From NCBI GenBank assembly GCA_023271515.1, contig JALPXQ010000001.1, positions 1-59,871 on the forward strand: 59,871 nucleotides of DNA, written 5' to 3'. The notes under the pieces were generated by a model, which searched no databases, was not told where the DNA came from, and saw only the letters and a program-made list of their open reading frames with translations. Positions within the stretch are counted from its first letter, which is position 1. Every line of letters starts with the position of its first letter. The position numbers and the translations under genes are program-made. Shown piece by piece: positions 2,309-59,871 of the stretch. This DNA comes from Dehalococcoidia bacterium (GTDB lineage Bacteria > Chloroflexota > Dehalococcoidia > SZUA-161 > SpSt-899).

Positions 2309-2415
2309 CTGCTTCTTTTGATTTGTTATACTCCACTGCCCCTGAAGAACCAGTTTTTTGATTGTATATTAAGTAGCCTCCTTCTATTATATCACCTTTT
2401 CCCTCATCTATCTAT

Positions 2416-2460
2416 ATTATAACGCCTCAATGTTAAGATTCTGTTAAGAGATTGTTAAGA
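2416..2460 (-). promoter_or_regulatory. candidate activator-dependent promoter: three TGTTAAGA repeats at 11-bp phasing plus a -10 TATAAT
   Basis: TGTTAAGA occurs at 2431-2438, 2442-2449 and 2453-2460 (plus-strand spelling). On the minus strand TATAAT lies at 2421-2416, downstream of the repeats. There is no good -35 hexamer. Confidence 0.4.
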
Positions 2461-2514
2461 TAAGGTTGCATCTATATCTTGACATTATCAGATTAGGTGG
2501 TAGCCAGGGAAGAA

Positions 2515-7573: not shown

Positions 7574-7590
7574 GGATCGAGGTTTCTTCT

Positions 7591-8850
7591 ATGAAAACAG
7601 TACAGAACAATACGATAAGAAACGGCATTAAGGTTGCTTTGTGGGAAATCAGAAAATTAGTGTGGAACAAAGCCTTTATTATTTCCCTTCTATTGACGCC
7701 GGTTATCTGGGGTTTATTTATGGGACTGCCAAGACTTTTTGAGAAAATCGGGGAACCCGCTGCTGCGCCCACAACTTATATATACATAGTAGATGAAATT
7801 GGTATTTATGAATCATTGTCTCAAAAGGTAAGTGATATAGATAATCTGTTTTTAAGAAAGCATTCAGGCCCTATAGATGACTTAAGAAATCGCATCGAAG
7901 GTGATGAAAATGCTGGATACGTGCACATAACAGAGGAGATATTTGAAACAAGACTAATCAGTGTAATGACAGGTACAGGAGATACTCACATTCCACTTGC
8001 CTTTAATACCAGACTCAAGGAAACACTGACGCGCTATGAATTGGCAATGCACAATGTAGAAGCGGGGGATATCGAAAAAATTGTTGCTGGATATTTCGTT
8101 AGTGTTAGTCCGGTTATTGAAGAAAGTGTGGATCCAATGGATCGTGTTAGAAAATGGGTTCCACCGATTTTTGCAATGATAATCTTTTTTATGGTCTTCA
8201 TGAGCGGAATGACGACTATGCAAAGCGCTATATCCGACAAAAGAGATAAAATGATTGAAATATTACTTTCTTCGGTATCTGCAAGCAGTCTGATGTATGG
8301 AAAGATCATTGGTAATTTCTTTGCCGGACTTATTCAATTGGCAGTATATTTGATATATGCACTAATGTTCATACATTTTCTGGGCATTCCTGGACTTGGC
8401 CATATTCCGGTGCATCAATTACTTTCTTATATTATCTCACCTGAATTGCCGTTATTATTGTTTTTTGCTCTCGCGGGCTATCTTTTGTTTTCTTCCATAT
8501 ATGCCGGGCTGGGGGCTACAATGGAAGACGTTATGAATGCTGGAAATTTTCAAGGAATCATTATGTTGCTCCCAGCCTTATCCGCTCTTTTCATAAGCCC
8601 TGTTATCGGCAATCCAGAAGGAATTATTGCCCAGATTGGAAGCTATATTCCGTTTACAGCCTCCATAGTAATGATACTAAGAATCACCCTTATTGACTTG
8701 GCTTTGATAGAAATTGTTATTCCAGTAGTTATTTTACTGGCATCAACAATGTTTATGGCGAAACTTGCCGGCAAGATATTCAGAACAGGAATGTTGATGT
8801 ATGGGAAGGAAGCGGATCCGAAAGAAATGTGGAAGTGGTTGAGACAGTAA
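7591..8850 (+). CDS. ABC-2 family permease (NatB-like topology)
   Basis: 419 aa. One N-terminal TM helix, a loop of roughly 150 aa, then about five TM helices. Paired with the upstream ATPase. Confidence 0.75.
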   Translation: MKTVQNNTIRNGIKVALWEIRKLVWNKAFIISLLLTPVIWGLFMGLPRLFEKIGEPAAAPTTYIYIVDEIGIYESLSQKVSDIDNLFLRKHSGPIDDLRNRIEGDENAGYVHITEEIFETRLISVMTGTGDTHIPLAFNTRLKETLTRYELAMHNVEAGDIEKIVAGYFVSVSPVIEESVDPMDRVRKWVPPIFAMIIFFMVFMSGMTTMQSAISDKRDKMIEILLSSVSASSLMYGKIIGNFFAGLIQLAVYLIYALMFIHFLGIPGLGHIPVHQLLSYIISPELPLLLFFALAGYLLFSSIYAGLGATMEDVMNAGNFQGIIMLLPALSALFISPVIGNPEGIIAQIGSYIPFTASIVMILRITLIDLALIEIVIPVVILLASTMFMAKLAGKIFRTGMLMYGKEADPKEMWKWLRQ

Positions 8851-8930
8851 CCCTTCTTTGCACTAGTGCCTACGATGCGAATCCCGGAAAAATCGGGAAT
8901 GTGGCGGGGCAAAGTTGGAAATGGAGAGTC

Positions 8931-9914
8931 ATGCGCATCGTATTTATGGGAACGCCCGAGTTCGGAGCGATCATTCTAAGGCGACTGCTCTCCAGTGAAC
9001 ATGAGGTAATAGCGGTCTACTCTCAGGCGGATAAGCCCGCAGGGCGCGGACGGATCGCCACTGCTCCACCGGTGAAGCAAGTTGCCCAGGAGCACGGTCT
9101 GATGGTATTCCAGCCAAAGGGGCTGAGGGACAGAGCTGAAGTTGCGCAACTGGCTAACCTGAGGCCAGATGCCATAGTCGTCGCCGCTTTCGGGCAGATA
9201 TTGCCCCGGGAGATACTGAACATCCCGGAGTTCGGCTGCCTGAATGTTCATCCCTCCCTCCTGCCCCGCTATCGCGGCGCCTCCCCTATCCCCTCTGCCA
9301 TTCTGTCTGGTGATGATATAACCGGTGTTAGCATTATGCTCATGGACGAAGGCATGGACACTGGACCTGTTCTAGGCCAGAGGACGGTTTCAATACACGG
9401 CGAAGATACCGCTGAATCACTGGGGTCCAGACTGGCCCAGGTTGGGGCTGATCTCCTGATAGAAACTCTCCCTCAATGGTTTGAGCGTCGTTTGGTGCCA
9501 CAGCCCCAAAAGGAAGAAGATGCCACCTATACCAGGCCGATTCTCAAGAGCGATGGAGAAATAGATTGGAATCTTCCGGCGGTGGAACTCTCGAGAAGAG
9601 TGCGTGCCTTCTATCCCTGGCCTGGATGTTTCACCCTGTGGCAGGGAAGGGTTCTCAAGATACTGGAGGCGGTCGCCTTGCCTCCTCGTGGGGAAGTGGG
9701 GCCAGGGACAGTTGTGCCGCTATCCGCTGAGGTGCCGGTGGGGGTGGGGACGGGGGAGGGGATACTGGGGCTGCATCGGGTTCAGCTCGAGGGGAAAAGA
9801 CCGATGTCTGCTGCCGAGTTCCTGCACGGGCAGAGGGCCTTTATCGGGCAGAAATTGACTCACCCTCCCCTGCTTGAGAGCCGCCGGCCGCCCAGGAGAT
9901 GCATATGCAGGTGA
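8931..9914 (+). CDS. fmt: methionyl-tRNA formyltransferase
   Basis: MRIVFMGTPEFG start and HPSLLPRYRGASPI motif. Start moved to ATG 8931 inside the longer ORF. Confidence 0.92.
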   Translation: MRIVFMGTPEFGAIILRRLLSSEHEVIAVYSQADKPAGRGRIATAPPVKQVAQEHGLMVFQPKGLRDRAEVAQLANLRPDAIVVAAFGQILPREILNIPEFGCLNVHPSLLPRYRGASPIPSAILSGDDITGVSIMLMDEGMDTGPVLGQRTVSIHGEDTAESLGSRLAQVGADLLIETLPQWFERRLVPQPQKEEDATYTRPILKSDGEIDWNLPAVELSRRVRAFYPWPGCFTLWQGRVLKILEAVALPPRGEVGPGTVVPLSAEVPVGVGTGEGILGLHRVQLEGKRPMSAAEFLHGQRAFIGQKLTHPPLLESRRPPRRCICR

Positions 9915-13772: not shown

Positions 13773-14336
13773 TCATTGAGTGTATAGAGGGGCTTTCCCC
13801 ATGGTTGCGCTCCTCAAAACAAAAGCAATTGCCTTTGCAAGTTCTTCCGGCCTCTGTGATCCGATTAATATTGGCCTTCCATCTAGAAATTCTAAGGCCA
13901 CTCCACGATTACCGCTCACATTATATGCTTTACCTGATCTATAAGAACGAACACCCCATCCTCTGCAGTCTTTAATAGGACTATACGTTCGCACTTCGTA
14001 TCGCTTCAAGTTCTCCAAAGGAATCCTAAGAAAAGAAGAATGGAGAGGGAAGAGGCGAATATACAATCCATCACTTCGCACCTCTGTTATCAGTTTTGCG
14101 GTATAGAATAGCCAAATAAGACCTGCACCAAGAGCAATAAAAAAGCCTCCGACAATGAGCAGCATTGTATCTGATATTGGATCGTCTCCCCACGGTTGAC
14201 CAAAAACAAGTTGCCTAATCATTCCATAACCGAAAAGTCCCACAAGAAGCATACAACTGGAAAGCATGATTAACCAGAGCCACCATTGACGAAACTTTTG
14301 AATTTCCTGGAAAATCATATTTCCATCCTTATTCAT
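13773..14336 (-). CDS. membrane protein of unknown function
   Basis: 187 aa. Two N-terminal hydrophobic helices followed by a soluble domain. AT-richer than its neighbours. I recognise no family. Confidence 0.55.
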   Translation of the reverse strand: MNKDGNMIFQEIQKFRQWWLWLIMLSSCMLLVGLFGYGMIRQLVFGQPWGDDPISDTMLLIVGGFFIALGAGLIWLFYTAKLITEVRSDGLYIRLFPLHSSFLRIPLENLKRYEVRTYSPIKDCRGWGVRSYRSGKAYNVSGNRGVALEFLDGRPILIGSQRPEELAKAIAFVLRSATMGKAPLYTQ

Positions 14337-15141
14337 GTTACCCCTCCCCCTCTAAGCCATTTCACCTGACGTTTCGCGTGTTTGCGACGTTCGCCGATAG
14401 GCGAACGAACGGCTTCAGCAATCGCCTCTTTGGTCAGTGCCCGCGCCATTCCTCAATAACTGCCTCCCAAGCCATGTCGTTGGCTACCTGTTCAAGCACA
14501 TCTACAACTAATACTACTTTGTTAATTAGTCCTGTCTCTCTGAAGAATAAGGAGTTTCCAAAGCAGAGGAGATTGAGGAATGGGTGCTGTGACCAGCCCT
14601 CACCAGAATCGATCAGGTTCGGAACTTGACCGCCTGGTGCAAGTAACAAAGTAGTACTAATTCCGATATCTCCGAACATCCATTCCCGTCTGCACGTGCA
14701 ATTGCTAACACACTATGCCATGGCTAGTCAATAATCGTATCCCTTGAGGCAGATGGAACGGCGGCAATATGCTGCGCGGCTCTACCCCCTACCCATGCGG
14801 TATTTGATGTCATAGTTGATGATGAAACTTCCTCGTCGGTGAAGCCGTAGTGCTGCGCCTGCAGCACTCTTTATCGTCCTTGCTTTGCTTCCCACCTGAA
14901 AGTTCGCCGGAAAACCACCTCATCAGTCTCACTCCAGGCATTGCCCTGTTCAATACCCTCCAGTGCCTTATCTAAATGACCCATTTTACTTCTACGGATT
15001 CCATAGGAAGCATCCGGTGCTCCTCCTACTTAAACAGTGTATACAATGGTTGATGGTGGATGGTTGGTTGCCTTATCCTCATCGTTTTCTAACCCCTGGG
15101 CCTGCGGCCGGGGGCAGGCCTGACAACCCGAGCAGTTACAC

Positions 15142-29898: not shown

Positions 29899-30204
29899 AT
29901 GGACGTAGTAAGGTCTAAAAACGGTGTCCCAATAAGATTGACAGAGGAGAGATGGATTCATATTACAGAGGAGCATTCAGAGATGGCGGGTTATTATTTT
30001 GAAGTGGTTCAAACGGTGGATGAGCCAGAGGCAATTTATGAGGGTAAGATGGGGGAGTGCATAGCAGCGAGAGAAATAGAGAAAGGTAAATATATTGTAG
30101 CAGTGTATAGAGAATTAAGTAAAGAAGATGGATTTGTAATTACCGCCTTCTTAACGAGGCGGAGGAAACAACTTGAAAGGAGGCGAAAGATATGGCAGCA
30201 GTAG
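29899..30204 (+). CDS. small toxin-like protein (DUF4258-like)
   Basis: 101 aa. IRLTEERWIHITEEH motif. Overlaps the next small gene. Family assignment is from memory. Confidence 0.5.
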   Translation: MDVVRSKNGVPIRLTEERWIHITEEHSEMAGYYFEVVQTVDEPEAIYEGKMGECIAAREIEKGKYIVAVYRELSKEDGFVITAFLTRRRKQLERRRKIWQQ

Positions 30205-30443
30205 AGGTAAAAAGTATATTGACCCTTGTGCCAGAGCTGTTGAAAGTCCCATATTCAAGGATTTGGACATCCTATGATAAAGAGGCTGATGTTTTATACA
30301 TCAACTTTAAGAAACCAAGTCATGCGGATGATTCTGAGCTTACAGATGATGATCTCATAATCAGATATGAGAAAGGGAAAATTGTGGGAATCACCATACT
30401 CAATGCAAGTAGAATGAGGACAGGATATGGGCACAGCGTATAA
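30192..30443 (+). CDS. DUF2283-like small protein (putative antitoxin partner)
   Basis: 83 aa. [12 protein letters not shown]...[12 protein letters not shown] pattern typical of DUF2283, from memory. Confidence 0.55.
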
Positions 30444-30519
30444 CAGCCGACATATGGCTACGCTATGCTCCGCCCAAATTCCCTCCCTTCGCTCGGGAAC
30501 TTCGTATGTCCGCAAAACG
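30436..30519 (+). other. attC-like site of the solo cassette
   Basis: R'' GCGTATAAC (30436-30444), L'' GACATATG (30449-30456), L' CGTATGTC (30503-30510), junction G at 30519. Shares the blocks ACGCT, CCCAAAT, ACTTCG and CAAAACG with the two sites near 57.1 and 58.8 kb. Confidence 0.55.
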
Positions 30520-32520
30520 ATAGACGAACTCTGTATCAACACCATACGTTTTCTGGCCATCGATGCTGTCCAGAGGGCAAATTCAGGCCATCCGGGAGCG
30601 CCCATGGGCATGGCGCCGATGGCTTATGTGTTATGGGACAGGTTTCTGAAGCATAATCCCGCCGACCCGAAATGGCCCAACCGGGACCGGTTCATTCTTT
30701 CGGCAGGGCACGCCTCAGCGATGCTCTATGCCCTCCTGTACCTTACGGGATATGAGCTGTCCCTTGAGGAGATCAAGCATTTCCGACAATGGGAAAGCAA
30801 GACCCCGGGGCATCCTGAGTACGGATTAACCCCTGGTGTGGAGGCGACAACGGGACCGCTCGGTCAGGGATTTGCCAATGGCGTGGGTATGGCCATTGCC
30901 GAAAAGATGATGGCACAGCACTACAATCGGCCAGGATATGAGATCATAGACCATTATACCTATGCTATTGTCTCCGATGGGGACCTTATGGAGGGCGTTG
31001 CCTCAGAGGCAGCTTCACTGGCGGGGACTCTTCGCCTGGGTAAGCTCATTTATCTCTACGATGACAACGATATTTCAATCGAAGGGCATACCGATATTAC
31101 CTTCCGGGAGGACGTGGGTAAGCGTTTCGAGGCGTATGGCTGGCACGTCGTAGGACCCATCGACGGCACGGATCTGGATGCAATCGATGATGCCATTCGG
31201 CAAGCACAGGCAGAGAGGGATCGCCCCAGCCTGATCATTTGCAAGACGATTATCGGTTATGGCAGCCCAAGCAAGGCAAACACCGCCAGTGCTCATGGTG
31301 AGCCACTGGGCGAGGCAGAAGTCCTTCTAACCAGGGAGAATTTGGCGTGGCCCTTCAGGGAGCCATTCACCGTGCCGCCGGACGTCCTGGTTCATTTCCG
31401 GCAGGCGCGGGAACGGGGAAAACGGTGGCAACAGGATTGGGAAAGCAAACTGGAGGCTTATCGCCGGGAATTTCCTGAGGCGGCAAGACGCCTGGGGGAA
31501 GACCTGGCGGGGAATCTACCTGACGGTTGGGAGCAGGATCTCGACGATTTGTTCTCCTCTCAGGAAAAGCCGATCTCCACACGCGCAGCATCGGGGCTGA
31601 TCATCAATGCCATTGGATCGAAGGTTCATTCCCTTACCGGCGGTTCGGCAGACCTTGCACCTTCCACCAAGACCATCATGAGAGACCGCGGGCACTATGG
31701 TCCGGAGAACTATGCCGGTCATAACATACACTTCGGCGTCCGCGAGCACGCCATGGGGGCAATCGCCAACGGCATGGCCCTTCACGGCGGCGTGATTCCC
31801 TATACAGCAACCTTCCTCGTTTTTTATGACTATATGCGCCCGCCGGTGCGCCTGGCAGCGATGATGGGGCTGCAAGTGATATATATTTTCACTCACGACT
31901 CTATTGGTGTGGGAGAGGATGGGCCAACACACCAGCCCATCGAGCAACTGATTGGCTTAAGATCGGTGCCAAATCTGGTAACACTGCGTCCTGCCGACGC
32001 CACTGAAACAGCCGAGGCATGGAAGATGGCTCTAAGGCGTCGTCATGGTCCCACGGCTTTAGTTCTCAGCCGTCAGGATCTGCCTTTCTTGGATCGCTCA
32101 ATATTGGCTTCAGCAAGCGGTGTGCAACGTGGCGGATACGTGCTCTGGGAAGCATCCACATCGCCGGAAGTGATCCTCATCGGCACAGGCTCGGAGGTCC
32201 ACATTGCCTTGGAAGCCGGGCGGATATTGCAGGAAAAGGGTGTCCCAGCAAGGGTTGTTTCCCTGCCTTCGTGGGAACTGTTTGATGCTCAACCGGCGGA
32301 GTATCGCAACCAGATTTTGCCGCCTGAAATAAGAGCGCGTATTTCAATCGAGGCCGGTACGCCTCGGGGATGGGAACGATATATCGGTCTGGATGGACTC
32401 GCCATGGGGGTGTCTTGCTTTGGTTCCTCAGCACCGGCAGGGACAATCTACGAGAGGCTGGGTCTGACTGCGAAAGCGGTGGTGGACAAAGCTCTCGCAC
32501 TTCTAGGGGGACGTGATTGA
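30454..32520 (+). CDS. tkt: transketolase
   Basis: SGHPGAPMG and SDGDLMEG motifs, full length. The present start is uncertain: in-frame ATGs at 30427 and 30454 both lie inside the inserted cassette. Confidence 0.9.
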
Positions 32521-50363: not shown

Positions 50364-50401
50364 GGCTATGCAGGAGGGTATGTGTGCGTCAGGAGGTGAG
50401 C

Positions 50402-51508
50402 ATGGCAGTCCGCGCAAACTTGATCCAGATCGAGCCGGGGGAAGCAGAGAGGCTCAAGCTCCTCATCCCCTATGATGCCACATGGGTAGCAAAGGTCAAG
50501 GCCATCCCTGGTCGCCGCTGGCACCCGAAGGAAAAGTGCTGGAGTGTTCCCCGCTCAGAGAACATGGTCGAAAGGCTCGTCTCACTCTTTGGCGAGGAGC
50601 AGGTGAAGGTTGAGCCGTCTCTGCGTCCCTTGAAGGACTCACTCATCTGCCAAGGAGAAGATCCGCAGCTAGTGCAACTGCTTGAAGCGATGGATCAAGA
50701 ATTGAGGCTGCATGGCTACGCGGCGAAGACACGCAAAGCTTACCTGGGGCATGTGGATCGTTTTGCTCGCTTCTATGGAAACGACCCGCAAGGTTTAAGC
50801 AAGGTAACGATGCGTGCATACCTGCTCCATCTGCTTCAGAAGTAGCAAGCATCCCACACGTATGTCAACCAATGTATCAGCGCACTGAAGTTCCTGTACG
50901 AGAAGGCCCTGAAAGAACCCTCCCCAATGGTCAACCTTCCCCGGCCAAAGAGGGAGCGCAAGTTGCCGGATATCCTGAGCCGGCAAGAGGTTCTTCGGCT
51001 CTTGGAGGCAGTACAGAACCCCAAACACCGTGCCATTATGCTGTTGACTTATTCGTCAGGACTCCGTCTGGGCGAAGTGGTACGATTGAAGATAGAGGAC
51101 ATTGACAGCGCGCGACGGCTGATTCACCTCCGACAAGCTAAAGGGCGAAAGGATCGCTACACCGTACTGTCCCAGGTGGCTTTGGATGCCTTGCGAGCCT
51201 ATTTCAAGCAGTATCACCCTGATCAGTGGCTCTTCCCCGGGGCGCAACCGGGGCGGCACTTACACGAACGCACCGTGCAGAAAGTCTTTGAGCAGGCCCG
51301 AGAAATGGCGGGAATTCGTAAGAATGTGTCTGTGCATACACTGCGCCATTCGTTTGCGACCCATTTGCTGGAGTCAGGCACAGACTTGAGATACATTCAA
51401 GAGCTGCTCGGACACAAGAGTTCCAAGACTACTGAGATTTACACGCACGTTAGTGAGCGAGACATTGGACGGATCCAGAGCCCGCTGGACACTCTTGGAA
51501 TTCAATAA
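50402..51508 (+). pseudogene. tyrosine site-specific recombinase with an in-frame TAG
   Basis: The two ORFs (…50845 and 50927…) share one frame, separated only by TAG at 50843-50845. Catalytic region HTLRHSFATHLLE...LLGHKSSKTTEIYTHV. C-terminal SPLDTL. Confidence 0.85.
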
Positions 51509-51622
51509 AATGGGAATATTGACGAGGGACGCTGACGGCTAAAGGAAGGGATTCGCGAAATGGTTCGTCTAACATGCCAAAACCGACGTATCTGCGAACC
51601 TTGGGGTGCGTGAATGCATGAG
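51509..51622 (+). other. attI-like region between the recombinase and the first cassette
   Basis: GC-rich spacer ending in G51622 of GTTGTCCGA. Does not resemble the attC-like cores. Confidence 0.4.
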
Positions 51623-51672
51623 TTGTCCGAAATTGCGGGCGACGGGCTAATGGAAATCAGAGGTGATAAATT

Positions 51673-52023
51673 ATGGATGATAAGGAGACATTTGGGGAAA
51701 TCAAAAAATTGATACAAGAATTTAACATGATACGGAATTGGGACAAATATCACCACCCTAAAGATTTGATTTTGGCGATAATGGAAGAGCTTGGAGAATT
51801 ATCTCGTATTTTTAAACGGGTTAACACTAAGAATGAGGTAAAATATCTTAAAAAAGAGAAGGTTGGAGAGGAAATTGCGGATATTTTTATTTACTTATTT
51901 ATATTATGCTATAAAGCAGATATAGATATTTCTAATGCAATAATGGAAAAGCTTCAAAAAAATAATGAAAAATATCCTGTCGATAAACGATTCAGAAAAG
52001 GAGGGTACAAAAATGGAAAATAA
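51673..52023 (+). CDS. MazG-like all-alpha nucleoside triphosphate pyrophosphohydrolase
   Basis: 116 aa. Metal-binding motifs EELGEL and EEIADI, and C-terminal NNEKYP. Confidence 0.75.
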   Translation: MDDKETFGEIKKLIQEFNMIRNWDKYHHPKDLILAIMEELGELSRIFKRVNTKNEVKYLKKEKVGEEIADIFIYLFILCYKADIDISNAIMEKLQKNNEKYPVDKRFRKGGYKNGK

Positions 52024-53311
52024 AGAGAATTTGAAAAGACGTGTTCTTTTATATATATCTAGAGGTGCAAACACTTTGGATAAATTACTCCAAGTTTGCA
52101 ACGGTATTTATCCAAACGAATTAAAATTTTTGTTAAATGAACTAAAAGATAAAAACTTAGTGAAGGAAGAAAATGACTTTTTTGTTGTTGATAAAAATTG
52201 TATCGAATATTTAAAAATAGTAGATGTAAATCGCTTAGAAATGAATAAAATAAATGAAAAATTTTTAAAAATGTATCATGAACTACCTATCCCTCACCCA
52301 CTAGATTATGAGTGGAGATGGAACTTAGATAATTTAAAAAAACTATTTACAGCTATAATAAACAAACATCCTTTTAACAACTTAAAAATTGGTTTTCTTG
52401 GAGCTCCAATTGCAGCTATTTATTTTTCTATTGTTAAAAATTTTGAAAACTTGAATTTCCAATTGACATTAATTGATAGGAATGAAGAAATAATCAGATA
52501 TATTAGAAATAATAGCATTCTAAATAACCAAATTAAAACAATATGCCACGACTTACAATATGAATTCAAAAATGGATTAGGAAAAAATGATATAATAATT
52601 ATGGATCCTCCTTGGTACGTAGCCTTTCACAAAATTTTTATCTCTAGAGCATCATCAATTTTGCAGCCCGAAACAGGTTTTGTTTATTCATCTTTATTTC
52701 CAACAAATACAAGACCAAATGCTATTTATGAAAGAATGGAAATATTAGAAATTTTTATTAAATCGGGGTTACATCTTGTATCTTTAACTCCTTCATTCTT
52801 TAAATATGAAACTCCACATTTTGAGTCAAAATCCCTCGAAGCAAGCGGTATTAGATTGGAATCTCATTGGCGGTATGGAGACCTTATAATTCTTCAATCA
52901 ACTAAGCTTTTAAGACCTATAATTTTTGGAGATTTTATTGTCGAAAATTTTGTTTGGAAAACTGTTAGATTTGATAAAAAACTAATTAAAATTAAGATCT
53001 CACCTTTTGAAGAACAATACATACGTCCCCGGATAATTCAAATATTAGATAAATCTAGCATTTTAGAGAGCGTTAGTAGAAGACATCCATACAGGCCTTA
53101 TGTAGATATGTGGACATCAGATAATGAAATATTTCATCTTACAGGAAGAAATATCATATACTTTGTTTTGAATTTGTACTCTTCAGGAGAAAATATTCAA
53201 CAGATTGTAGAAAAGATAAGTAAGAAATATGGAGTGCAAAGGAAAAAAATTGATGAAGATATAAAAGAAATTGTTAATTTTGTAGAAACTAATATAGTAA
53301 GGAGGGAATAA
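52013..53311 (+). CDS. wHTH / class-I SAM-dependent transferase-like (DPPW) protein with a PqqD-like C-terminal domain
   Basis: IIIMDPPWY motif IV, Rossmann-like FLGAPIAA...LIDRN, and C-terminal HLTGRNIIYFVLNLYSSGENIQQIVEKISKKYGV resembling PqqD/RRE. Start at ATG 52013 after AGGAGGG. Confidence 0.6.
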   Translation: MENKENLKRRVLLYISRGANTLDKLLQVCNGIYPNELKFLLNELKDKNLVKEENDFFVVDKNCIEYLKIVDVNRLEMNKINEKFLKMYHELPIPHPLDYEWRWNLDNLKKLFTAIINKHPFNNLKIGFLGAPIAAIYFSIVKNFENLNFQLTLIDRNEEIIRYIRNNSILNNQIKTICHDLQYEFKNGLGKNDIIIMDPPWYVAFHKIFISRASSILQPETGFVYSSLFPTNTRPNAIYERMEILEIFIKSGLHLVSLTPSFFKYETPHFESKSLEASGIRLESHWRYGDLIILQSTKLLRPIIFGDFIVENFVWKTVRFDKKLIKIKISPFEEQYIRPRIIQILDKSSILESVSRRHPYRPYVDMWTSDNEIFHLTGRNIIYFVLNLYSSGENIQQIVEKISKKYGVQRKKIDEDIKEIVNFVETNIVRRE

Positions 53312-53312
53312 A

Positions 53313-54548
53313 ATGAATATATTTAACTTGGCAGACTTAGGATATAAGATTATCGTAATAGATGAAAAAGCTATAAATTTATTTCTAAACAAAGTTTCAT
53401 TAGAAGAAATCAAAGATTTTATTCGTCACAAAGGGAAAGTTTATGTTTTGGGTAAAGATGCTGGAGAAATAAAAAAATATGTTGAAAAGTCTGGAGGAGA
53501 AATTATTGATATTTCTAAAAAAGAAGTATTGGCAGAGGTTACAACTATTGTAAGGACTAAAAACCATAAATTTTTAGATTGGGCTAAAACATTTGGGATA
53601 GATTCAAAATTGGTTAAATCTCAGGTATTATATGTTAAATATACCGATGCATCTGTTATAACAGATTTACCAGCCTTCTTTAATATGCCTTATGTTAAAT
53701 ATGTAAGAAAAAAAGACTGCTACTTAAGATTAATAGCTCATGGTATGGAAAACTGCCCTCACAATTGTGTATATTGCTATGCTAATTATGCTTATGATGT
53801 CCCAACAACAGTTTTAATCAATTTTAAAAATAAAATAAAAGAGGATATTCAAAAACCAAATATAAAGGAACATATTCAACGAGGTTATCCAATTAACATA
53901 GGTTCAATTACAGACCCTTTTAGTAAGGTAGCTGTTTATTTTGGTTTGGTTGAAGACTTTTTATCCTCTGTTGGTGACATTAGAACTTTAATAGTAACTA
54001 AGTCTACTCTTTTTACAAATGATTATTTTGTCGATTTATTAAAAAAATTTAGGAATGTAAAATTAACCTTCACATTTACAGGACTTCACCAATACGAAGC
54101 AGGTGTCCCACGCAGAGGCTATAATTTTCCATCAGAAGAAATATCAAAAGCTATATCCTCTGGAATTGATATTAATGTTTTTTATAGGCCAATAATAGAA
54201 GGTATTAATGATGATTTAAGCGATATGAGAGTTATATTTTCACAAATGAAAGAAGCAGGATTAACAAATGTATGTTTTGGTTTTTTAAGAAATAACATGC
54301 GAATGGAGGAGTCTCTATCTAAGAGATTTTCCTCTTTGTTCTTAGATTTGACTAAAGGATTGACTGACAAATACATGGATGATTTTTATCCTCTTTTAAA
54401 CTATCGCATTAGGAAATCATTAGAGATTCATAATATTCTTTACCATCTAGATATGAATATCTCTGCCTGTCAACCCTATATTGGAAAATTAAGAGATTTA
54501 GTAGAAACAACTTATTGCTCTTGTAGAAAAGAGAGGTGGGAAAAATGA
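53313..54548 (+). CDS. radical SAM enzyme, spore-photoproduct-lyase / COG1533-like
   Basis: CPHNCVYCYA cluster motif (CX3CX2C followed by YA, as in DNA-photolyase-type radical SAM proteins). An N-terminal domain of about 130 aa has unknown function. Confidence 0.65.
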   Translation: MNIFNLADLGYKIIVIDEKAINLFLNKVSLEEIKDFIRHKGKVYVLGKDAGEIKKYVEKSGGEIIDISKKEVLAEVTTIVRTKNHKFLDWAKTFGIDSKLVKSQVLYVKYTDASVITDLPAFFNMPYVKYVRKKDCYLRLIAHGMENCPHNCVYCYANYAYDVPTTVLINFKNKIKEDIQKPNIKEHIQRGYPINIGSITDPFSKVAVYFGLVEDFLSSVGDIRTLIVTKSTLFTNDYFVDLLKKFRNVKLTFTFTGLHQYEAGVPRRGYNFPSEEISKAISSGIDINVFYRPIIEGINDDLSDMRVIFSQMKEAGLTNVCFGFLRNNMRMEESLSKRFSSLFLDLTKGLTDKYMDDFYPLLNYRIRKSLEIHNILYHLDMNISACQPYIGKLRDLVETTYCSCRKERWEK

Positions 54549-55549
54549 AGATACATTTAGCAATTTTATATAAAGATTATTTAGATTTGATTTTGGAAGG
54601 TAAAAAAACGATTGAGGCTCGTTTTTCAAAGGTTAAATGTCCACCTTATGGTAGAGTTTCTATTGGAGATAAAATTCTATTAAAGGAAACAGGAGGTCCT
54701 ATTAGGGGAGAGGCTACAGTCAGTGTTGTAAAGTATTTTGATAACCTTGCTCCATCTAGGGTTGTCCATATTGTTAATAAATACAAAGAACAATTACAAA
54801 TTAAAGACAATTTTCTTAACCAAAAGTTGGATAGTAATTATTTAACTCTTATATTTCTCAAAGACGTCGTCGAAGTTTCACCTTATTTTATTAATAAGAG
54901 AGATAGAAGAGGCTGGATTGTATATTACAATCACGCTCCTCAATCAATACAATTGGACTTATTTGGAAATAAAGTCAGTGATAAGGAAGTGAAAATAAAC
55001 CCATATTACAGTGAATGCGAAAATGGATTGCATTCTTTCTTTAAATCTCCTTTAAAAAATAGTGAAGGATACCCACGTTGTAGAAATTGTGGTAAAGACA
55101 TAATTCACTGGAAGAAACTACATATAAGAGATTTAAAAAATATAGATTTTGTTATTTCAGAGTTAAGGAAAGAATGGTGGAGAAACTACTGGTGGGAGGT
55201 TGAAATCGATGAAAAAGCTATATCCCACGCACTTAGGAAGAACTCTAATGAACTATACGTTCTTGTAAGAAAAAGAATCGAAAAGTCTGTTGGGATTGTC
55301 TATGAGTTTAGAGGCAGAAAACAACCCTATCGTGATGGTTATCAGATACCCTACAAAGGCAATATTATTTATTATGCTCAACATGCTACAGCTACATGTT
55401 GCAGAAAATGTATTGAGTGTTGGCATGGCATACCTCAAGGCAGAAACCTCAACAATGAAGAAATAGAATATCTTACTATGTTAGTAATGAAATATATAAG
55501 AAGGAAATTAAGGGATTACAAGAGGGGGGTGATAAGAAATGGTAAGTGA
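54545..55549 (+). CDS. ASCH-domain / zinc-ribbon / DUF4186-like fusion protein
   Basis: N-terminal ILEGKKTIEARF...GDKILLKE (ASCH/PUA-like). CRNCG zinc-ribbon. C-terminal YYAQHATATCCRKCIECWHGIPQGR (DUF4186 signature, from memory). ATGA overlap with the upstream stop. Confidence 0.6.
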   Translation: MKIHLAILYKDYLDLILEGKKTIEARFSKVKCPPYGRVSIGDKILLKETGGPIRGEATVSVVKYFDNLAPSRVVHIVNKYKEQLQIKDNFLNQKLDSNYLTLIFLKDVVEVSPYFINKRDRRGWIVYYNHAPQSIQLDLFGNKVSDKEVKINPYYSECENGLHSFFKSPLKNSEGYPRCRNCGKDIIHWKKLHIRDLKNIDFVISELRKEWWRNYWWEVEIDEKAISHALRKNSNELYVLVRKRIEKSVGIVYEFRGRKQPYRDGYQIPYKGNIIYYAQHATATCCRKCIECWHGIPQGRNLNNEEIEYLTMLVMKYIRRKLRDYKRGVIRNGK

Positions 55550-56510
55550 TGATGAATTTGTAAGAGTAAGAGATGAAATTCTTAAACTCATCGTTGAAGG
55601 AAATAAAAAGTTACTATTCTGGGGTTTCACTCCATTTTGTATTAATCTTATTTCAAATCTTGTGAATATGGGTTTGGATAATTGTATAGTTGGAATAATT
55701 GACCATAAAAACAATAAACAAGGATGTAAAGTATACAATTATGTAGTATTACCCCCTTCAGAAATAAAAAAATTAGATATTGACACTTTAGTTATATGTT
55801 ATGATGAAGAAAAGGAAGATGTCTTAGAATTATTTTACAATTTATATTCAAAAAATAGAAAAGTTGAAATTATACTTTATGGAAATAAGAATTACGAATT
55901 TTCGGATAGTCTTTTTCAGGAAATAATTGATTCACTTCCTGTTAAGTCCAAGGCTGGTGGATATCCTTTTATGCTCATTCACATATACCAATCATTAATT
56001 CATGTTATCAAAAATAACATACCTGGTGATGTCGTAGAGATTGGTACATTCCAAGGTGGTACCACCGTATTCATGGCTAAAGTAATAAAAGCGTTAGGAA
56101 GCGATAAAAAAATTTTTTCTTTCGATACATTTTCAGGATATCCGGAGAGCAAAAACCCTTTAGACTTATTTAAAGATAAAAAGTGTGAGTTTAGTGATTA
56201 TGATTTCGTCAAAAACTATTGCAAACCGTATAAAATAGAACTTATTAGAGGAAATATAGTAGAAACCATTAATACGTTGAAAGGGGAAAAAATCTCTTTT
56301 TCTTTTTTTGATACCGACAATTATACACCTACTAAAATAGCTTTAAAATACATTTTCGATCTTACACCTAAGGGAGGAATCTTTGCTTTTGATCATTATT
56401 ACTCAAAAGATTGGATAAAAACTATAGGAGAAAGGATAGCCATTAAGAAGTTCTTTAAAGATAAAAATGTTTTTAACTTACAAGGAACTGGAATATTTAT
56501 CAAATTATGA
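55539..56510 (+). CDS. TylF/MycF-like SAM-dependent methyltransferase with an N-terminal Rossmann-like domain
   Basis: GDVVEIGTFQGGTT SAM motif, FDTFSGYPE, FFDTDNY. Confidence 0.65.
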   Translation: MVSDDEFVRVRDEILKLIVEGNKKLLFWGFTPFCINLISNLVNMGLDNCIVGIIDHKNNKQGCKVYNYVVLPPSEIKKLDIDTLVICYDEEKEDVLELFYNLYSKNRKVEIILYGNKNYEFSDSLFQEIIDSLPVKSKAGGYPFMLIHIYQSLIHVIKNNIPGDVVEIGTFQGGTTVFMAKVIKALGSDKKIFSFDTFSGYPESKNPLDLFKDKKCEFSDYDFVKNYCKPYKIELIRGNIVETINTLKGEKISFSFFDTDNYTPTKIALKYIFDLTPKGGIFAFDHYYSKDWIKTIGERIAIKKFFKDKNVFNLQGTGIFIKL

Positions 56511-56519
56511 GGTGTAACT

Positions 56520-57071
56520 ATGGAAAGGATTGTAATTGGTGTATCTGGTCCTATTGGGGCCGGAAAAACATGCCTTTGTAATATACTAGTGGCAAAATAT
56601 GGATTTAAATATTTAAGTTTTGGAAAATTGATTTCTGACATATTAAAAGAAGAGGGTGTTGAGATTACAAGAGAAAATTTACAAAATATGGGTGAAAAAA
56701 TAATAAAAGAGAAGGGTTGCAAGGGTGTTGTCGACTTGCTTTTTAAAAAGTATCAAGTGGGTGAGGTATCAAATTATACTATTGATGGTATAAGACATAT
56801 GAAAGTTTATTTGTATCTAAAAGAAATTTTTAAAAGCTCTTTTAAACTTGTATATGTCGATGCCCCACTAACTGTTAGATTTGAAAGGGTCAAAATGAGG
56901 GTTAAAGATATTAATATAAACTCACTGACTGATTTAAAAGAACTTGAATGTAAAGAGATCGAGAGAAATATTCCGTATTTAAAGAAATATGCAGATTTTA
57001 TAATAATGAATGATAAGGATGATACCCATTTAGAAAATAAACTAAAAAACCTATTAAATCAAATAATTTAA
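56520..57071 (+). CDS. P-loop nucleotide/nucleoside kinase-like protein
   Basis: GVSGPIGAGKT Walker A. Size and layout resemble dephospho-CoA kinase or dNMP kinase. Confidence 0.65.
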   Translation: MERIVIGVSGPIGAGKTCLCNILVAKYGFKYLSFGKLISDILKEEGVEITRENLQNMGEKIIKEKGCKGVVDLLFKKYQVGEVSNYTIDGIRHMKVYLYLKEIFKSSFKLVYVDAPLTVRFERVKMRVKDININSLTDLKELECKEIERNIPYLKKYADFIIMNDKDDTHLENKLKNLLNQII

Positions 57072-57076
57072 AATGT

Positions 57077-57209
57077 GCCCGTCGCCCGCAACTCTCCGCT
57101 TCGCTTCGGTGCTATCGCACTCGGACAACAGCAGGTATGCGGTTCGCTTACGCTCACCCAAATGCTCGGCTTCACCTCGCACTTCGCATACCCGCCGCCC
57201 GTTAGTTGC
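57077..57209 (+). other. attC-like site 1
   Basis: Box' GCCCGTCGCCCGCAA, 29-nt bulge, R'' TCGGACAAC, L'' GGTATGCG (57134-57141), 43-nt core, L' CGCATACC (57185-57192), R' GTTAGTTGC (57201-57209). Confidence 0.6.
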
Positions 57210-57279
57210 AATTGGCGTCGGGTCGAAATTCAGGAAAGGAATAAAAATACATAATTAATAAATTAGGAGAGGCGATAAA

Positions 57280-57510
57280 ATGAGAAATATGAAAGAGCAG
57301 ATAGAAAGATTTGTGGATGATACAATAAAGAAAAATGATATCGTACTCTTGGATATTTTATGGACCTTCTACTGGTGTATTACCACCACACCTAAATCAG
57401 GGTATTATGAAAATAATAAATTAAATGTAAGTAACATTTTCAAAAAATGGTTCTATAGAGTCTCTATTAGAAATTTACAAAAAAGTTTAATTTACGTCAG
57501 ACAGAAATAA
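57280..57510 (+). CDS. hypothetical protein
   Basis: 76-aa ORF after GGAGAGG. I recognise no family. Confidence 0.4.
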   Translation: MRNMKEQIERFVDDTIKKNDIVLLDILWTFYWCITTTPKSGYYENNKLNVSNIFKKWFYRVSIRNLQKSLIYVRQK

Positions 57511-57542: not shown

Positions 57543-57887
57543 ATGAACACCGCACCGGATTTTCTACCTTACGAAACTTATGATGAAGATAGAGAATTAT
57601 TAAGAAAACTCTTACTCAAGAAAAGTTCAGATCTTTTAATTAAAAACATTAGAAATAAAATGGATACTCTATCCGACTTGGATAAAAAAATTCTGTCATT
57701 TATATTATACTACATTCCACTTAAAATTCAGGAGTCTATAAAGGAAGCGGAAGAAGAAAGGCAAAAAGGAGGCTTTGACTGGGGCAAATATGGTTATCTC
57801 CCCGATTTTCATATAAAAACAGATAAAGAAACTGGTGAAATTGTTTATTTTGAAATCGATCCAAAAGAATGGACATACATTTTTTAA
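57543..57887 (+). CDS. hypothetical protein (possibly the N-terminal part of the downstream nuclease gene)
   Basis: 114-aa ORF ending in a T6 run (57880-57885). A one-base change there fuses it to the next ORF. Confidence 0.4.
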   Translation: MNTAPDFLPYETYDEDRELLRKLLLKKSSDLLIKNIRNKMDTLSDLDKKILSFILYYIPLKIQESIKEAEEERQKGGFDWGKYGYLPDFHIKTDKETGEIVYFEIDPKEWTYIF

Positions 57888-58692
57888 TTTATTATTTGAT
57901 GAAGAGTTAAAAGAACAAAGGTTTAAAATTAAATTACATAGAAAGCGTACAGGATTTATATTTCTTCCACAAGAAGAATATAAGGAATATAGTTTCTGGC
58001 AATTTGGAGACGAATTGGTAAAAATGGGTATTGGGTATTGGAGCGTTTGGGTTTCAGAATCAAAAAATGTACATATAGAGTTCGTTATTCCGAACTTTAT
58101 TTATGAGGCCATACAAGATTATAAAACCAAATTACCAATAATCGAAAACTTTGAAGAAAAAATCAATGAAATTAAAAGGGAAAAAGAGACAAAAAGATTA
58201 GAAAAAGAATGGAATCTTGAAGACTTTGAAGAAACTGAGGCAGTTAGCGAAGTATTAGAATCTGAGATTGAAGCTTCCATAATATCAAATCCTGAAATTT
58301 TAGAAGAAGGATTAGAACTTGTTGGTAATCAGTATCCAACTTCTGTTGGTTACATCGATATACTTTGTAAAGATAAAAATGGGAATTTTGTTGTAATAGA
58401 ATTAAAGAGAGGTACAGGTTCATATAAAGTAGTTGGTCAAATTCAGAAGTACATGGCATGGGTCAGCGAAAATCTTGCTAAAGATAAACAAGTTCGGGGA
58501 ATTATTGTAGTGAAAGAGTATGACCAAGAGTTAGAGTACGCTGTTAAAGGATCAAAATTTCCAATTGAGATAAAAATATTCGGACAAGAACCACCAACTG
58601 GAGAAAATATAAAATATTGTACAAGATGTGGAAAACCAAATCCAAAATCGGCTAAATATTGTATCAAATGCGGACAAGAATTTTGGATGTGA
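57835..58692 (+). CDS. NucS/DUF91-like PD-(D/E)XK nuclease with a C-terminal double zinc-ribbon
   Basis: GYIDILCKDKNGNFVVIELKRG...QIQKY nuclease core. KYCTRCGKPNPKSAKYCIKCG. The true start is uncertain. Confidence 0.6.
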   Translation: MKLFILKSIQKNGHTFFNLLFDEELKEQRFKIKLHRKRTGFIFLPQEEYKEYSFWQFGDELVKMGIGYWSVWVSESKNVHIEFVIPNFIYEAIQDYKTKLPIIENFEEKINEIKREKETKRLEKEWNLEDFEETEAVSEVLESEIEASIISNPEILEEGLELVGNQYPTSVGYIDILCKDKNGNFVVIELKRGTGSYKVVGQIQKYMAWVSENLAKDKQVRGIIVVKEYDQELEYAVKGSKFPIEIKIFGQEPPTGENIKYCTRCGKPNPKSAKYCIKCGQEFWM

Positions 58693-58713: not shown

Positions 58714-58847
58714 CGACCCGACGCCAACTTCTCGCCTCTTCGAGGCTCGACCCTTACGGGGCAACTAACAAGCGAATATACGGTTCGCTTCGCTCACCCA
58801 AATGCTCGGCTACGCCTCGCACTTCGCATATCCCCAAAACGTTATAT
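58714..58847 (+). other. attC-like site 2
   Basis: Box' CGACCCGACGCCAA, 33-nt bulge, R'' GCAACTAAC, L'' GAATATACG (58774-58782), core, L' CGCATATCC (58825-58833), R' GTTATAT (58841-58847). Confidence 0.6.
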
Positions 58848-58919
58848 GACATTCCGCCCCTTCGCCGTATCAGAAAATATAAAAATATATGGATTATTGT
58901 AAATTATGGAGGCTAAAAG

Positions 58920-59435
58920 ATGACAACAATAGAAGAAATCTTAAAATCAAAAAAGAAGCCAAAGGAAATCGTTGAACTTTTGGCTGAAGCACTAAAAAGG
59001 GATAAGAAACTAATCGCTGAACTTATCCAATGTTTTGAAAATGGCACCACTGCTGAAAAAGGGAATTGTATGGAAGCAATAGAATATGTCACCAAAGAAA
59101 ACCCTGAATTTGCTGAAAACTGCCTTGAGTTTGTTATTGCTCATATCAATTGCAAAGCACCAAGAGTTAAATGGGAAGCTTGCAGGATAATAGGCAATGT
59201 TGCCCAAAAATTTCCAAGCAAAATCCAGAAAGCCATCCCAAAACTCTTAGAGAATACTAAGGACAAAGGCACAGTTGTAAGATGGAGCGCAGCCTTTGCT
59301 TTGACTGAGATTGCGAAAAGTAACTCAGAAATGCAGAAAGAACTTGTTCCAGAATTTAAGAAGATACTGGAAAGGGAAACCAACAAGGGAGTGAGAAATA
59401 TTTACCTAAAATATCTGAAGGATGTCGGACTATGA
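58920..59435 (+). CDS. HEAT-repeat protein
   Basis: 171 aa with repeated helical HEAT-like units (VRWSAAFALTEIA). Confidence 0.6.
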   Translation: MTTIEEILKSKKKPKEIVELLAEALKRDKKLIAELIQCFENGTTAEKGNCMEAIEYVTKENPEFAENCLEFVIAHINCKAPRVKWEACRIIGNVAQKFPSKIQKAIPKLLENTKDKGTVVRWSAAFALTEIAKSNSEMQKELVPEFKKILERETNKGVRNIYLKYLKDVGL

Positions 59436-59871
59436 TTGATGATGTTAGGGATATAATAGAAAAAGGGATTCAATCCTTGAATGATGCTCTTCCGGAAATA
59501 AACAATCTTGCTTCCAACGATGACTGGAGGAAAAGAGAGGATGCCGCTACTGCTTTGGTGGAGATTAGCAAAAAGAAAGAGGATGAAGTTGTAAATGAGA
59601 TGATACTCTGGGCTGAGGATGAAAATCCTAATATTCGCAGGACAGCAAGTGAAGGATTGAGGGGGGTAGCGAGAAGAAACCCAGAAAAGATTCTGCCTGT
59701 AATTGAAAAACTAAAAACAGATGATAGCCTTTATGTCAGAAAGTCCGTTGCTGCTCTTTTAAGAGCAATAAGCAAGAAACCCTCATGGGCGACTGCCCAC
59801 CAACGAATCACGAAAATGGGTGTAGTTGCACCGCGCATCGAGACTTGTTATCCTCAGATTGGGTGCATAGG
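59432..59871 (+). CDS. HEAT-repeat protein, partial (open to window end)
   Basis: My own translation from ATG 59432, which forms an ATGA overlap with the upstream stop. Motifs DENPNIRRTASEGL and DDSLYVRKSVA. Composition turns GC-rich after about 59783. Confidence 0.5.
   Translation, partial: MIDDVRDIIEKGIQSLNDALPEINNLASNDDWRKREDAATALVEISKKKEDEVVNEMILWAEDENPNIRRTASEGLRGVARRNPEKILPVIEKLKTDDSLYVRKSVAALLRAISKKPSWATAHQRITKMGVVAPRIETCYPQIGCI

Follow-up and report, generated by a model that had tools for sequence, protein, structure and literature searches.

What is carried by the block of six tightly packed genes of low GC content near the end of a Dehalococcoidia contig, and what might its products do together? 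The stretch of DNA analysed (the window; 59,871 nt of contig JALPXQ010000001.1) holds this block at positions 51623-57201. An earlier note, written from the sequence letters alone, had taken it for a single mobilised cassette encoding a candidate nucleotide or nucleic-acid modification system that it could not match to any described one. We find that the block is a single integron cassette of 5.6 kb with base-exact limits, and that it is a derived, regulator-less variant, extended with MazG and TylF genes, of a widespread mobile core operon. Profile and fold searches place its six products in the families that the note had named, not in unrelated housekeeping families. The features of the cassette are as follows.

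51622-51647, + strand: attI-side recombination point G|TTGTCC and left arm of an outer stem, with reverse complements at 57121-57129 and 57077-57091
51673-52023, + strand: g1, MazG-like all-alpha nucleoside triphosphate (NTP) pyrophosphohydrolase (PF12643, similarity to DCTPP1)
52013-53311, + strand: g2, winged-helix N-terminal domain, class-I transferase of BpsA/DUF43 fold with a DPPW motif, and conserved C-terminal domain (PF01861, Foldseek)
53313-54548, + strand: g3, radical S-adenosylmethionine (SAM) enzyme of the spore photoproduct lyase (SPL)/COG1533/DUF1848 branch, with an N-terminal extension of ~135 amino acids (aa) (CPHNCVYC motif)
54545-55549, + strand: g4, fusion of an ASCH (PUA-like) domain, a Cys/His zinc ribbon and DUF4186 (PF04266, PF13811)
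55539-56510, + strand: g5, TylF-family (sugar-type) O-methyltransferase with an extra N-terminal domain (PF05711)
56520-57071, + strand: g6, P-loop kinase of adenylate/nucleoside monophosphate (NMP) kinase type (AAA_18)
57077-57207, + strand: attC of the six-gene cassette, with the right arm of the outer stem at 57077-57091, R'' TCGGACAAC at 57121-57129, L''/L' arms, and R' at 57201-57207

All six genes run in the same direction and either overlap or abut. The three overlaps reported earlier (52013-52023, 54545-54548 and 55539-55549) are exact; the g1/g2 and g4/g5 overlaps are of 11 nt and the g3/g4 overlap is an ATGA, and the remaining junctions are gaps of 1 nt (g2/g3) and 9 nt (g5/g6). The GC content of the cassette is 29% overall (27-31% along its length), against ~55% upstream and in the Dehalococcoidia host. 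The cassette limits at 51623 and 57201 are fixed by complementarity between its two ends. GTTGTCCGA at 51622-51630, made up of the first cassette bases and the preceding G (51622), is the exact reverse complement of the attC R'' box at 57121-57129. A second exact complement, of 15 nt, pairs 51633-51647 with 57077-57091 as an outer stem, and the R' box GTTAGTT at 57201-57207 sets the end of the cassette at G57201. The 9- and 15-nt complements are not chance matches, because they are exact over these lengths, lie at the expected positions and recur in the neighbouring cassette, where the same two-tier pairing joins 57201-57209 with 58761-58769 and 57212-57225 with 58714-58727. Of the features by which an integron cassette is recognised, the R'' and R' boxes, pairing of R'' with the start of its own cassette and a G|TT crossover are found here. 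Our evidence for the attC is this exact complementarity and not fold energy, since the bottom strand folds as a hairpin whose energy is no better than that of shuffled sequences (z -1.1). A scan of the cassette for promoters and terminators likewise gave no signal above shuffles. At 5.6 kb the cassette is, as had been remarked, very large for one of integron type; the bacteriophage-resistance integron cassettes (BRiCs) that have been described carry one or two genes.

The outer complement of 14-15 nt, present in both cassettes, lies ~30 nt upstream of R'' and outside the canonical R''/R' pairing, and the sequence of its left half recurs in an attC of an Atribacteria locus (L006, 3087-3270). 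It may represent a longer form of attC that characterises this lineage of integrons.

We judged the Pfam family assignments of the six products by curated cut-offs, and the MazG-like, BpsA_C, ASCH, DUF4186, TylF and AAA_18 calls are all above them. The g1 protein scores 40.6 bits against PF12643 (cut-off 27) and 25 bits against PF03819 (cut-off 22), and also matches the pyrophosphatase family phrog_3301. Among proteins of solved structure it is closest to an archaeal pyrophosphatase (PDB 4qgp, 1.7e-17) and to dCTP pyrophosphatase 1 (DCTPP1/RS21-C6, 6.9e-16). The g5 protein scores 61.1 bits against PF05711 (cut-off 23) and is related to CalS11, MycF and NovP in the PDB (1e-7 to 4e-6). The kinase g6 scores 48 bits against AAA_18, with further matches to PRK08356, archaeal CMP kinase and the dNMP kinase family phrog_139. 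The profile of its family is closest to SSO1041/AdkA-like kinases (8e-16), AK1 (1e-10) and UMP-CMP kinase, with SFGDYVR, DGIRH and an R..R...R lid as conserved motifs.

The g4 protein joins three elements, as had been proposed. It scores 24.3 bits against the ASCH family (PF04266, cut-off 21.2), with the GxKxxExR motif present as GKKTIEAR, and 76.8 bits against DUF4186 (PF13811, cut-off 25), a family that includes E. coli YneG; the Cys/His columns of the zinc ribbon are conserved. In the AlphaFold2 (AF2) model (pLDDT 91.5) the ASCH half matches ZmASCH (6e-8, TM-score 0.71), TTHA0113 and the N4-acetylcytidine (ac4C) amidohydrolase YqfB. All structural matches fall on this half, and the DUF4186 half has no neighbour in the PDB or BFVD. 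The literature searched holds no functional description of DUF4186, and PDB sequence searches with g3 and g4 alone were uninformative. A weak HU-like domain is seen in part of the DUF4186 proteins. A virus-like contig that encodes Hjc, PCNA, MT-A70 and PAPS reductase (L012, 932-5509) has a g4 homologue of 61% identity directly downstream of a DUF5131 (phage Gp37/Gp68) gene. Because g2 and g3 are absent from this contig, ASCH-DUF4186 appears able to partner other enzymes.

The assignment of g3 to the radical SAM enzymes of the SPL/COG1533 group stands, although its score against the general Pfam Radical_SAM model (20.6 bits) is below the cut-off of 29.5. The CxxxCxxC motif is present and CPHNCVYC is invariant in 13 g3 homologues. 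At 100% identity, g3 also matches a protein from a Dehalococcoidia metagenome-assembled genome at NCBI, which makes a host of this class very probable. Matches to the COG1533-type NCBIfam profiles PA0069, Rv2578c and mobile-pair-B (E 1e-10 to 4e-7) are far below the equivalog cut-offs, g3 matches phrog_13321 at 8e-18, and DUF1848 is seen on g3 relatives. An alignment of the g3 family with gp53 of Pseudomonas phage M6 using hhalign gives a probability of 96.4% (E 1e-9, 229 columns); gp53, itself SPL-like, is the radical SAM enzyme by which N-alpha-glycinyl-thymine is isomerised in DNA (PMC8989533).

For g2 the earlier description was partly right. The winged helix and the class-I DPPW transferase are supported, with 35.8 bits against PF01861 (BpsA_C, cut-off 27), a Pfam match that most distant relatives lack, and with the branched-chain polyamine synthase BpsA (PDB 5xnf; 7e-14, TM-score 0.57 on the target) as the top Foldseek match of the AF2 model (pLDDT 86). 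This structural match spans both the winged-helix and the Rossmann domain, at 14% identity. The fused PqqD-like domain is rejected: PF05402 scores 18.0 bits (cut-off 23.4), no stretch passes alone, and the g2 family shows no profile likeness to the true, 88-aa PqqD protein of the related locus L003 (hhalign probability 0.1%). The start at 52013 gives the 432-aa form that is called in public data; an exact-sequence look-up with the 448-aa open reading frame (ORF) found no record. Invariant motifs of the family are PHPLDYEWRF, LGxP, DPPWY, TRP, WR.GD, VSRRHP..R and WTS.N, the last two marking the C-terminal domain. The profile also touches the amino-group methyltransferases HemK, RsmC and METTL5. 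The likeness to BpsA/DUF43 (PDB 5xnf, 2qm3) lies in the N-terminal winged helix followed by a class-I Rossmann domain. The differences are at the donor site, where the motif-I region of g2 reads LGAP and that of DUF43 is, we take it, GDDD; in the DPPW(Y) motif and upstream PHPLDYEWRF, which resemble amino-methyltransferases of N6AMT2/EEF1AKMT1 type (one family member matches PF10237); and in the extra C-terminal domain of ~170 aa, which is encoded by a separate gene in locus L116.

Short g2-like proteins (~310-400 aa) also occur without the radical SAM enzyme, ASCH protein or kinase, in Kluyvera sp. (L087, 10001-12369) and in L030, L057, L071, L074, L084, L088, L091 and L095. In eight loci the short protein adjoins a PUA-like plus metallophosphatase protein that scores 301 bits against the NCBIfam 'anti-phage phosphoesterase' DS-9A (cut-off 420). 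Identity with DS-9 is rejected, as DS-9 pairs its phosphoesterase with a HAD phosphatase. The pair may be a separate two-gene defence candidate on the same transferase fold.

The set recurs elsewhere, as the neighbourhood check suggested in the note confirmed, in two gene orders and in a simpler form of five to seven genes that spans many phyla. All six families occur in window order in L001 (38-64% identity). In L014 and L015 they are ordered radical SAM, g2, ASCH-DUF4186, TylF, kinase and MazG, in a block that adjoins rpmA, rplI, cysS and dnaB; L122 has g3-g4-g5-g6. The Atribacteria locus L006, in a metagenome-assembled genome, has the same cassette start, with MazG 79% and g2 69% identical, at a different position in an array, so that the same cassette is seen in two array contexts. 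It is the last cassette seen there, after other attC-bounded cassettes and an attC-like repeat, downstream of an integrase fragment; an insertion sequence cuts g2, so only the 5' part is visible.

A word-indexed search with 11 matches had made g2 seem almost unique, which was misleading. When one genome per species was scanned with a degenerate pattern, 91 loci came up, 80 of which were kept, and by an exhaustive profile search the g2 family comprises 2125 clusters (50% identity), with E<=1e-30 for 1126. From iterative profile searches over six-frame ORFs of the 80 loci we defined a core operon in the order zinc ribbon-DUF4186 (~200 aa), radical SAM (~335 aa), g2-like (~430 aa), ASCH (~175 aa) and kinase (~185 aa). 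The radical SAM and g2 genes occur together in 68 of the 80 loci, all five core families in 56, and all seven genes, counting two extra genes upstream, in 50. The first of these two, DUF6932, is an MNT-like protein with the GSx9DxD motif of Pol-beta-type nucleotidyltransferases (PADLOC PDC-M63A, 1.5e-11); the second encodes an XRE helix-turn-helix (HTH) protein of ~480 aa with an ImmA/IrrE-like HExxH motif in its C-terminal half. Hosts of the core operon include Bradyrhizobium, Sphingobium, Nostoc, Tolypothrix and Calothrix plasmids, Planctomycetota, Acidobacteriota, Dehalococcoidia, Actinomadura and Bacteroidota. Fusions join g2 with ASCH (L017, L021, L085), ASCH with the kinase (L033, L081, L116) and ASCH with DUF4186 (the window, L001, L014, L056), and indicate physical or functional coupling of the products. 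Between DUF4186 and the radical SAM gene, some core operons carry an additional gene, HNH-like in L018 (7366-8142), and gaps of ~800 bp are seen at this junction in L019, L020, L023, L032 and L039.

The radical SAM enzymes of the two forms are not orthologous. That of the window clade is SPL-like with a TDP motif, that of the core operon carries CNWRCWYCF and GGQPDL, and hhalign finds between them only the cluster motif or a match of 10% probability, so that no relationship beyond the superfamily is detectable. Locus L014 bridges the two forms, combining a core-type radical SAM gene with TylF, MazG and a fused ASCH-DUF4186. Either the radical step has undergone non-orthologous displacement, or the variants make different products.

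A looser module also exists: in other clusters, full-length relatives of the g3-type radical SAM enzyme (~35% identity) are found repeatedly in the company of a kinase and a protein of BpsA_C type. In L117-type loci, found on at least 10 metagenome contigs, this trio is accompanied by a serine recombinase, a thymidylate-synthase-like protein, L7Ae-ASCH, a methyltransferase, Ham1, HhH-GPD and PrimPol. These loci (L117, 151-8143; L126, 2669-12952; L123-L133) have the form of an integrative element, and in L126 the large serine recombinase lies beside a PBP gene. By its gene content the element looks like a cluster of thymidine-hypermodification type outside any recognised phage. L116 (1-10170) encodes TMPK, a split g2 (255 + 172 aa), a short 340-aa adenylosuccinate-synthetase (PurA)-like protein, OGG/HhH-GPD, dNK, FolE, QueD, QueE, a UbiD decarboxylase, a g3-type radical SAM enzyme and an ASCH-kinase fusion, which suggests that a deazapurine (possibly PurZ-like) nucleotide pathway may be joined to the same module. 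L131 encodes a radical SAM enzyme, NUDIX, DUF1611 and BpsA_C. Three non-homologous NTP pyrophosphatases thus accompany the radical SAM/BpsA_C-type/kinase trio: MazG in the window, Ham1 in L117-type loci and NUDIX in L131. With thymidylate-synthase-like, dNK, TMPK, FolE/QueD/QueE and HhH-GPD genes also beside the trio, these neighbourhoods strengthen the nucleotide or nucleic-acid interpretation offered in the note.

The core operon is mobile. It is present on 11 PLSDB plasmids, 8 of them conjugative, where its genes are annotated 'hypothetical', 'DUF4186', 'ASCH' or 'AAA ATPase'; 'hypothetical' is the RefSeq label. Tolypothrix PCC 7712 has an 18.4-kb insertion that is absent from its sister strain PCC 7601 (PMC9679502), and the core operon sits within it. 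Among 148 immediate flanking ORFs, phage integrase is the commonest Pfam family (8), and ~17 (~11%) are strong PADLOC matches to known defence proteins: dGTPase (four times), ThsA, IetA, HmaA, DrmD, BrxH, a nuclease associated with prokaryotic Argonaute and restriction-modification methyltransferases. Defence genes generally make up ~1-2% of genes, and set against this general level the figure suggests enrichment of defence genes beside the core operon. The product of the HTH-HExxH gene upstream of the core is similar to a regulator of CapH/CapP type in fused form. That integron cassettes can carry defence systems has been documented (bioRxiv 10.1101/2024.07.02.601719). Of the two contexts in which the note suggested looking, anti-phage genes are often found beside the operon, and phages hardly hold it: IMG/VR gave two weak g2 matches, no g3 and only fragments of DUF4186, and GenBank phages one weak match each. 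The system is cellular and mobile, and we reject a phage origin since it is nearly absent from these viral collections.

The note's failure to name a described system was also ours. PADLOC-DB v2 gave only stray sub-domain matches, among them that of the window kinase to a dCTP deaminase kinase domain (1e-12); NCBIfam r20 and PHROGs hold no named system or family name for the set, and the literature searched, which did not include the survey of Iyer et al. 2013, no functional description of it. The flanks of the 80 loci contain no restriction partner or transporter conserved with the core, and no conserved small gene of at least 80 aa, shorter ORFs not having been searched systematically.

What might such a set of enzymes do? 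Our leading interpretation, still a tentative one, is that the cassette encodes a self-contained, SAM-dependent pathway of modification at the nucleotide level, which would turn a canonical into a non-canonical nucleotide. In such a pathway the DCTPP1-like MazG protein g1 would hydrolyse a (d)NTP to its monophosphate, dCTP being the most plausible substrate, g2 would move a SAM-derived alkyl group onto an amino nitrogen of the base, and g3 would remodel the adduct by 5'-deoxyadenosyl-radical chemistry, through a rearrangement or a C-C/C-H step. The TylF-type enzyme g5 would then O-methylate a hydroxyl, g6 would re-phosphorylate the product, and g4 would bind the modified base, serving as carrier, checkpoint or amidohydrolase. 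While the analysis shows the structure of the cassette, the families of its products, their conservation, mobility and genomic contexts, the substrate, the sequence of steps, the product and the role are inferred from the family assignments. Three considerations argue for the nucleotide level: the one enzyme trio is accompanied, in different loci, by three unrelated NTP pyrophosphatases; the kinase resembles NMP kinases, and the core family conserves NMP-site motifs; and the relatives are surrounded by dense nucleotide-metabolism genes. The biological role is most likely anti-phage defence through a nucleotide analogue, by analogy with viperin and its kinase, the closest in logic. A defensive, mobile role is suggested by the integron cassette, the conjugative plasmids, the strain-specific insertion, the defence neighbours, the flanking integrases, the CapH/CapP-like regulator and the PDC-M63A match.

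Several observations weigh against this interpretation. The g3 homologue M6 gp53 acts on DNA and not on free nucleotides (PMC8989533), and the ASCH domain, the winged HTH of g2 and the HhH-GPD neighbours in L116 and L117-type loci also fit a polymer substrate. The choice of dCTP as the most plausible g1 substrate follows the closest solved homologue only. An Arg that the core family conserves in its NMP-binding motif is missing from the window kinase, and the cassette has neither the regulator genes nor an evident effector. The radical SAM branches being distinct, the chemistry may differ between variants. The defence enrichment, finally, is measured against a general figure of 1-2% and not a computed background. 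A bolder extension of the nucleotide-level pathway, which we regard as rather doubtful, is that the five-gene core is an undescribed, phylum-spanning anti-phage system, usually controlled by an XRE/ImmA-type switch and accompanied by an MNT nucleotidyltransferase, that makes a new SAM-derived modified nucleotide. The product would block phage replication or transcription, or the nucleotidyltransferase would install it on a target; the integron cassette would be a constitutive version, fed from the nucleotide pool by MazG and O-methylating through TylF.

The alternative that survives best, a serious one that we nonetheless judge somewhat unlikely, is hypermodification of bases at the polymer level, in DNA after replication or in RNA. 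The kinase would activate a group on the base, g2 would append or alkylate an amine, the radical SAM enzyme would isomerise or remodel the adduct in DNA, ASCH-DUF4186 would read or dock on the modified base, and MazG would merely bias the dNTP pool; the product would be a mark, epigenetic or protective, placed on RNA or on the DNA of the host or element. The match of the g3 family to a DNA glycinyl-thymine isomerase speaks for such chemistry, and gp53 adjoins a P-loop 5-hydroxymethyldeoxyuridine (5-hmdU) DNA kinase, gp54, to which the kinase family aligns weakly (probability 92.8%, 17% identity). That kinase profile, however, resembles adenylate/NMP kinases (1e-10 to 8e-16) far more than it does gp54. 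The L117-type loci closely parallel the M6 cluster in having a thymidylate-synthase-like protein, HhH-GPD, a g3-type radical SAM enzyme, a kinase, BpsA_C and a primase on an integrative element, but the cassette itself has no base hydroxymethylase, aGPT-Pplase, glycosylase-like enzyme or polymerase. ASCH domains bind nucleic acids, as the PDB matches to TRIP4-DNA and ZmASCH illustrate, and the weak HU-like domain of some DUF4186 proteins points the same way. The widespread core, on the other hand, uses a non-SPL radical SAM enzyme, has no conserved restriction partner and is nearly absent from phages.

We consider it improbable that the cassette makes a natural product of nucleoside or peptidyl-nucleotide type, or a ribosomally synthesised and post-translationally modified peptide (RiPP), secreted to act on competitors. 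In L001 and L003-L005 the six-gene block stands divergently beside an ABC exporter (ABC_tran and two ABC2), a TldD/PmbA peptidase, an 88-aa PqqD protein and a Pol-beta nucleotidyltransferase, spanning 546-4485 in L001, where a 341-aa PEP-utilizer-domain protein follows the block, and 360-5435 in L003. TylF-type enzymes are typical of natural-product tailoring, and L116 resembles deazapurine nucleoside clusters. Yet only one lineage shows the exporter context (L001 and L003 share 72% identity in g2); neither the window nor L006, L014 or the 80 genome loci have it, and no transporter is conserved with the core. The cassette leaves no intergenic room for a precursor gene, and the PqqD call on g2 is sub-threshold and unrelated to the true PqqD neighbour. 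The RiPP alternative, already ranked as the weaker one in the note, is further weakened because the PqqD fusion in g2 is unsupported. Pool sanitation or salvage, in which MazG, ASCH (an N-acyl/alkyl-cytosine amidohydrolase like YqfB) and the kinase would recycle nucleotides while the SAM enzymes repair lesions, draws on the house-cleaning enzymes DCTPP1 and Ham1, the YqfB-like ASCH fold, the repair enzyme SPL and the OGG/HhH-GPD neighbours, but has little chance of being right given a sporadic, mobile distribution and a tightly regulated operon unlike housekeeping repair, and a DPPW transferase and O-methyltransferase that add groups rather than remove them.

The surroundings of the six-gene cassette, including further members of the array, are as follows.

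50384-51508, + strand: tyrosine recombinase beside the array (Phage_int_SAM_4 and Phage_integrase), a single frame with an in-frame TAG at 50846-50848
57202-~58841: second cassette, with two small ORFs (57280-57510 and 57543-57887) and a 285-aa NucS/PDDEXK-type nuclease (57835-58692)
58842-59871: third low-GC cassette, with HEAT/DVU0298-like repeat proteins (58920-59435 and the ORF after it)

The recombinase is oriented in the same way as the cassettes and is related to XerA/IntI, under the IntI thresholds: it scores 189 bits against XerA_Arch/integron integrase (cut-off 220) and 179 bits against TIGR02249 (cut-off 265). The latter match is split into two parts, which would fit the absence of the additional domain specific to IntI, and the protein carries a HARP-like N-terminal extension. 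It may be a pseudogene, the victim of a sequencing error or an atypical integrase. Recoding of TAG as an explanation for the stop is not supported, as TAG terminates other long ORFs in the window. The nuclease of the second cassette has a C-terminal zinc ribbon and matches the PADLOC candidate PDC-S02 (2e-23), making this cassette another possible candidate for defence. In the third cassette GC climbs again near 59780, and no attC partner was found within the window. Other stretches of 38-48% GC in a background of 53-59% (1-3000, 7000-9000, 14000-15000 and 30000-31000) may be other acquired insertions.

If the nucleotide-level pathway is real, it would be a way, so far uncharacterised, of making a modified nucleotide or nucleobase by enzymes. 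The family comprises more than 1000 sequence clusters, in Proteobacteria, Cyanobacteria, Planctomycetota, Acidobacteriota, Chloroflexota, Actinomycetota and Bacteroidota. The pathway would for the first time assign functions to DUF4186 (the family of E. coli YneG), DUF6932 and a large unnamed branch of the BpsA fold, would enlarge the range of radical SAM chemistry directed at DNA or nucleotides, now represented by spore photoproduct lyase, viperin and M6 gp53, and would add a six-gene system to what integrons mobilise as one cassette. Compact, regulator-less and bounded by defined sites, the cassette is directly clonable.

Four known systems offer comparisons. Genes gp51-54 of phage M6 encode aGPT-Pplase, a pyridoxal phosphate (PLP) decarboxylase, the SPL-like radical SAM isomerase and the 5-hmdU DNA kinase (PMC8989533). 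The cassette resembles this thymidine hypermodification cluster in setting an SPL-like radical SAM enzyme beside a ~185-aa P-loop kinase among several enzymes. It differs in having no dUMP/dCMP hydroxymethylase, aGPT-Pplase or PLP enzyme, nor any thymidylate-synthase-like or HhH glycosylase-like gene, in adding the BpsA-fold DPPW transferase, ASCH-DUF4186, the TylF methyltransferase and MazG, in its NMP-kinase-like kinase, and in being cellular and integron-borne.

In the pre-replicative route of phage T4, the dCTPase gp56 is followed by the dCMP hydroxymethylase gp42 and the dNMP kinase gp1. The cassette is comparable in its NTP pyrophosphatase (g1, a dCTP-pyrophosphatase homologue), proposed modification at the monophosphate level and dedicated kinase (g6, phrog_139). 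Its modifying enzymes depend on SAM or radical SAM chemistry and not on folate, and it has no polymerase, glucosyltransferase or phage context. With the pVip/VakA viperins it shares a radical SAM enzyme and an NMP-type kinase on mobile, defence-island DNA, which together would make an antiviral nucleotide analogue. The core-operon radical SAM enzyme and kinase give weak matches to pVip (0.0027) and VakA (3e-5), far from membership; g3 is SPL-like with no pVip match, and g2, ASCH and DUF4186 have no counterpart in viperin systems.

The BRiCs (bioRxiv 10.1101/2024.07.02.601719) are likewise promoterless, attC-bounded cassettes and multi-gene accessory systems with homologues outside integrons. 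None of those described, nor any PADLOC system, matches ours, which holds six genes in 5.6 kb against one or two genes per cassette; a defence role is, in our case, predicted from gene families and context. Itself unnamed in PADLOC, NCBIfam and the searched literature, this gene set is of a known kind: SAM-dependent modification of nucleotides or nucleobases, encoded on mobile DNA.

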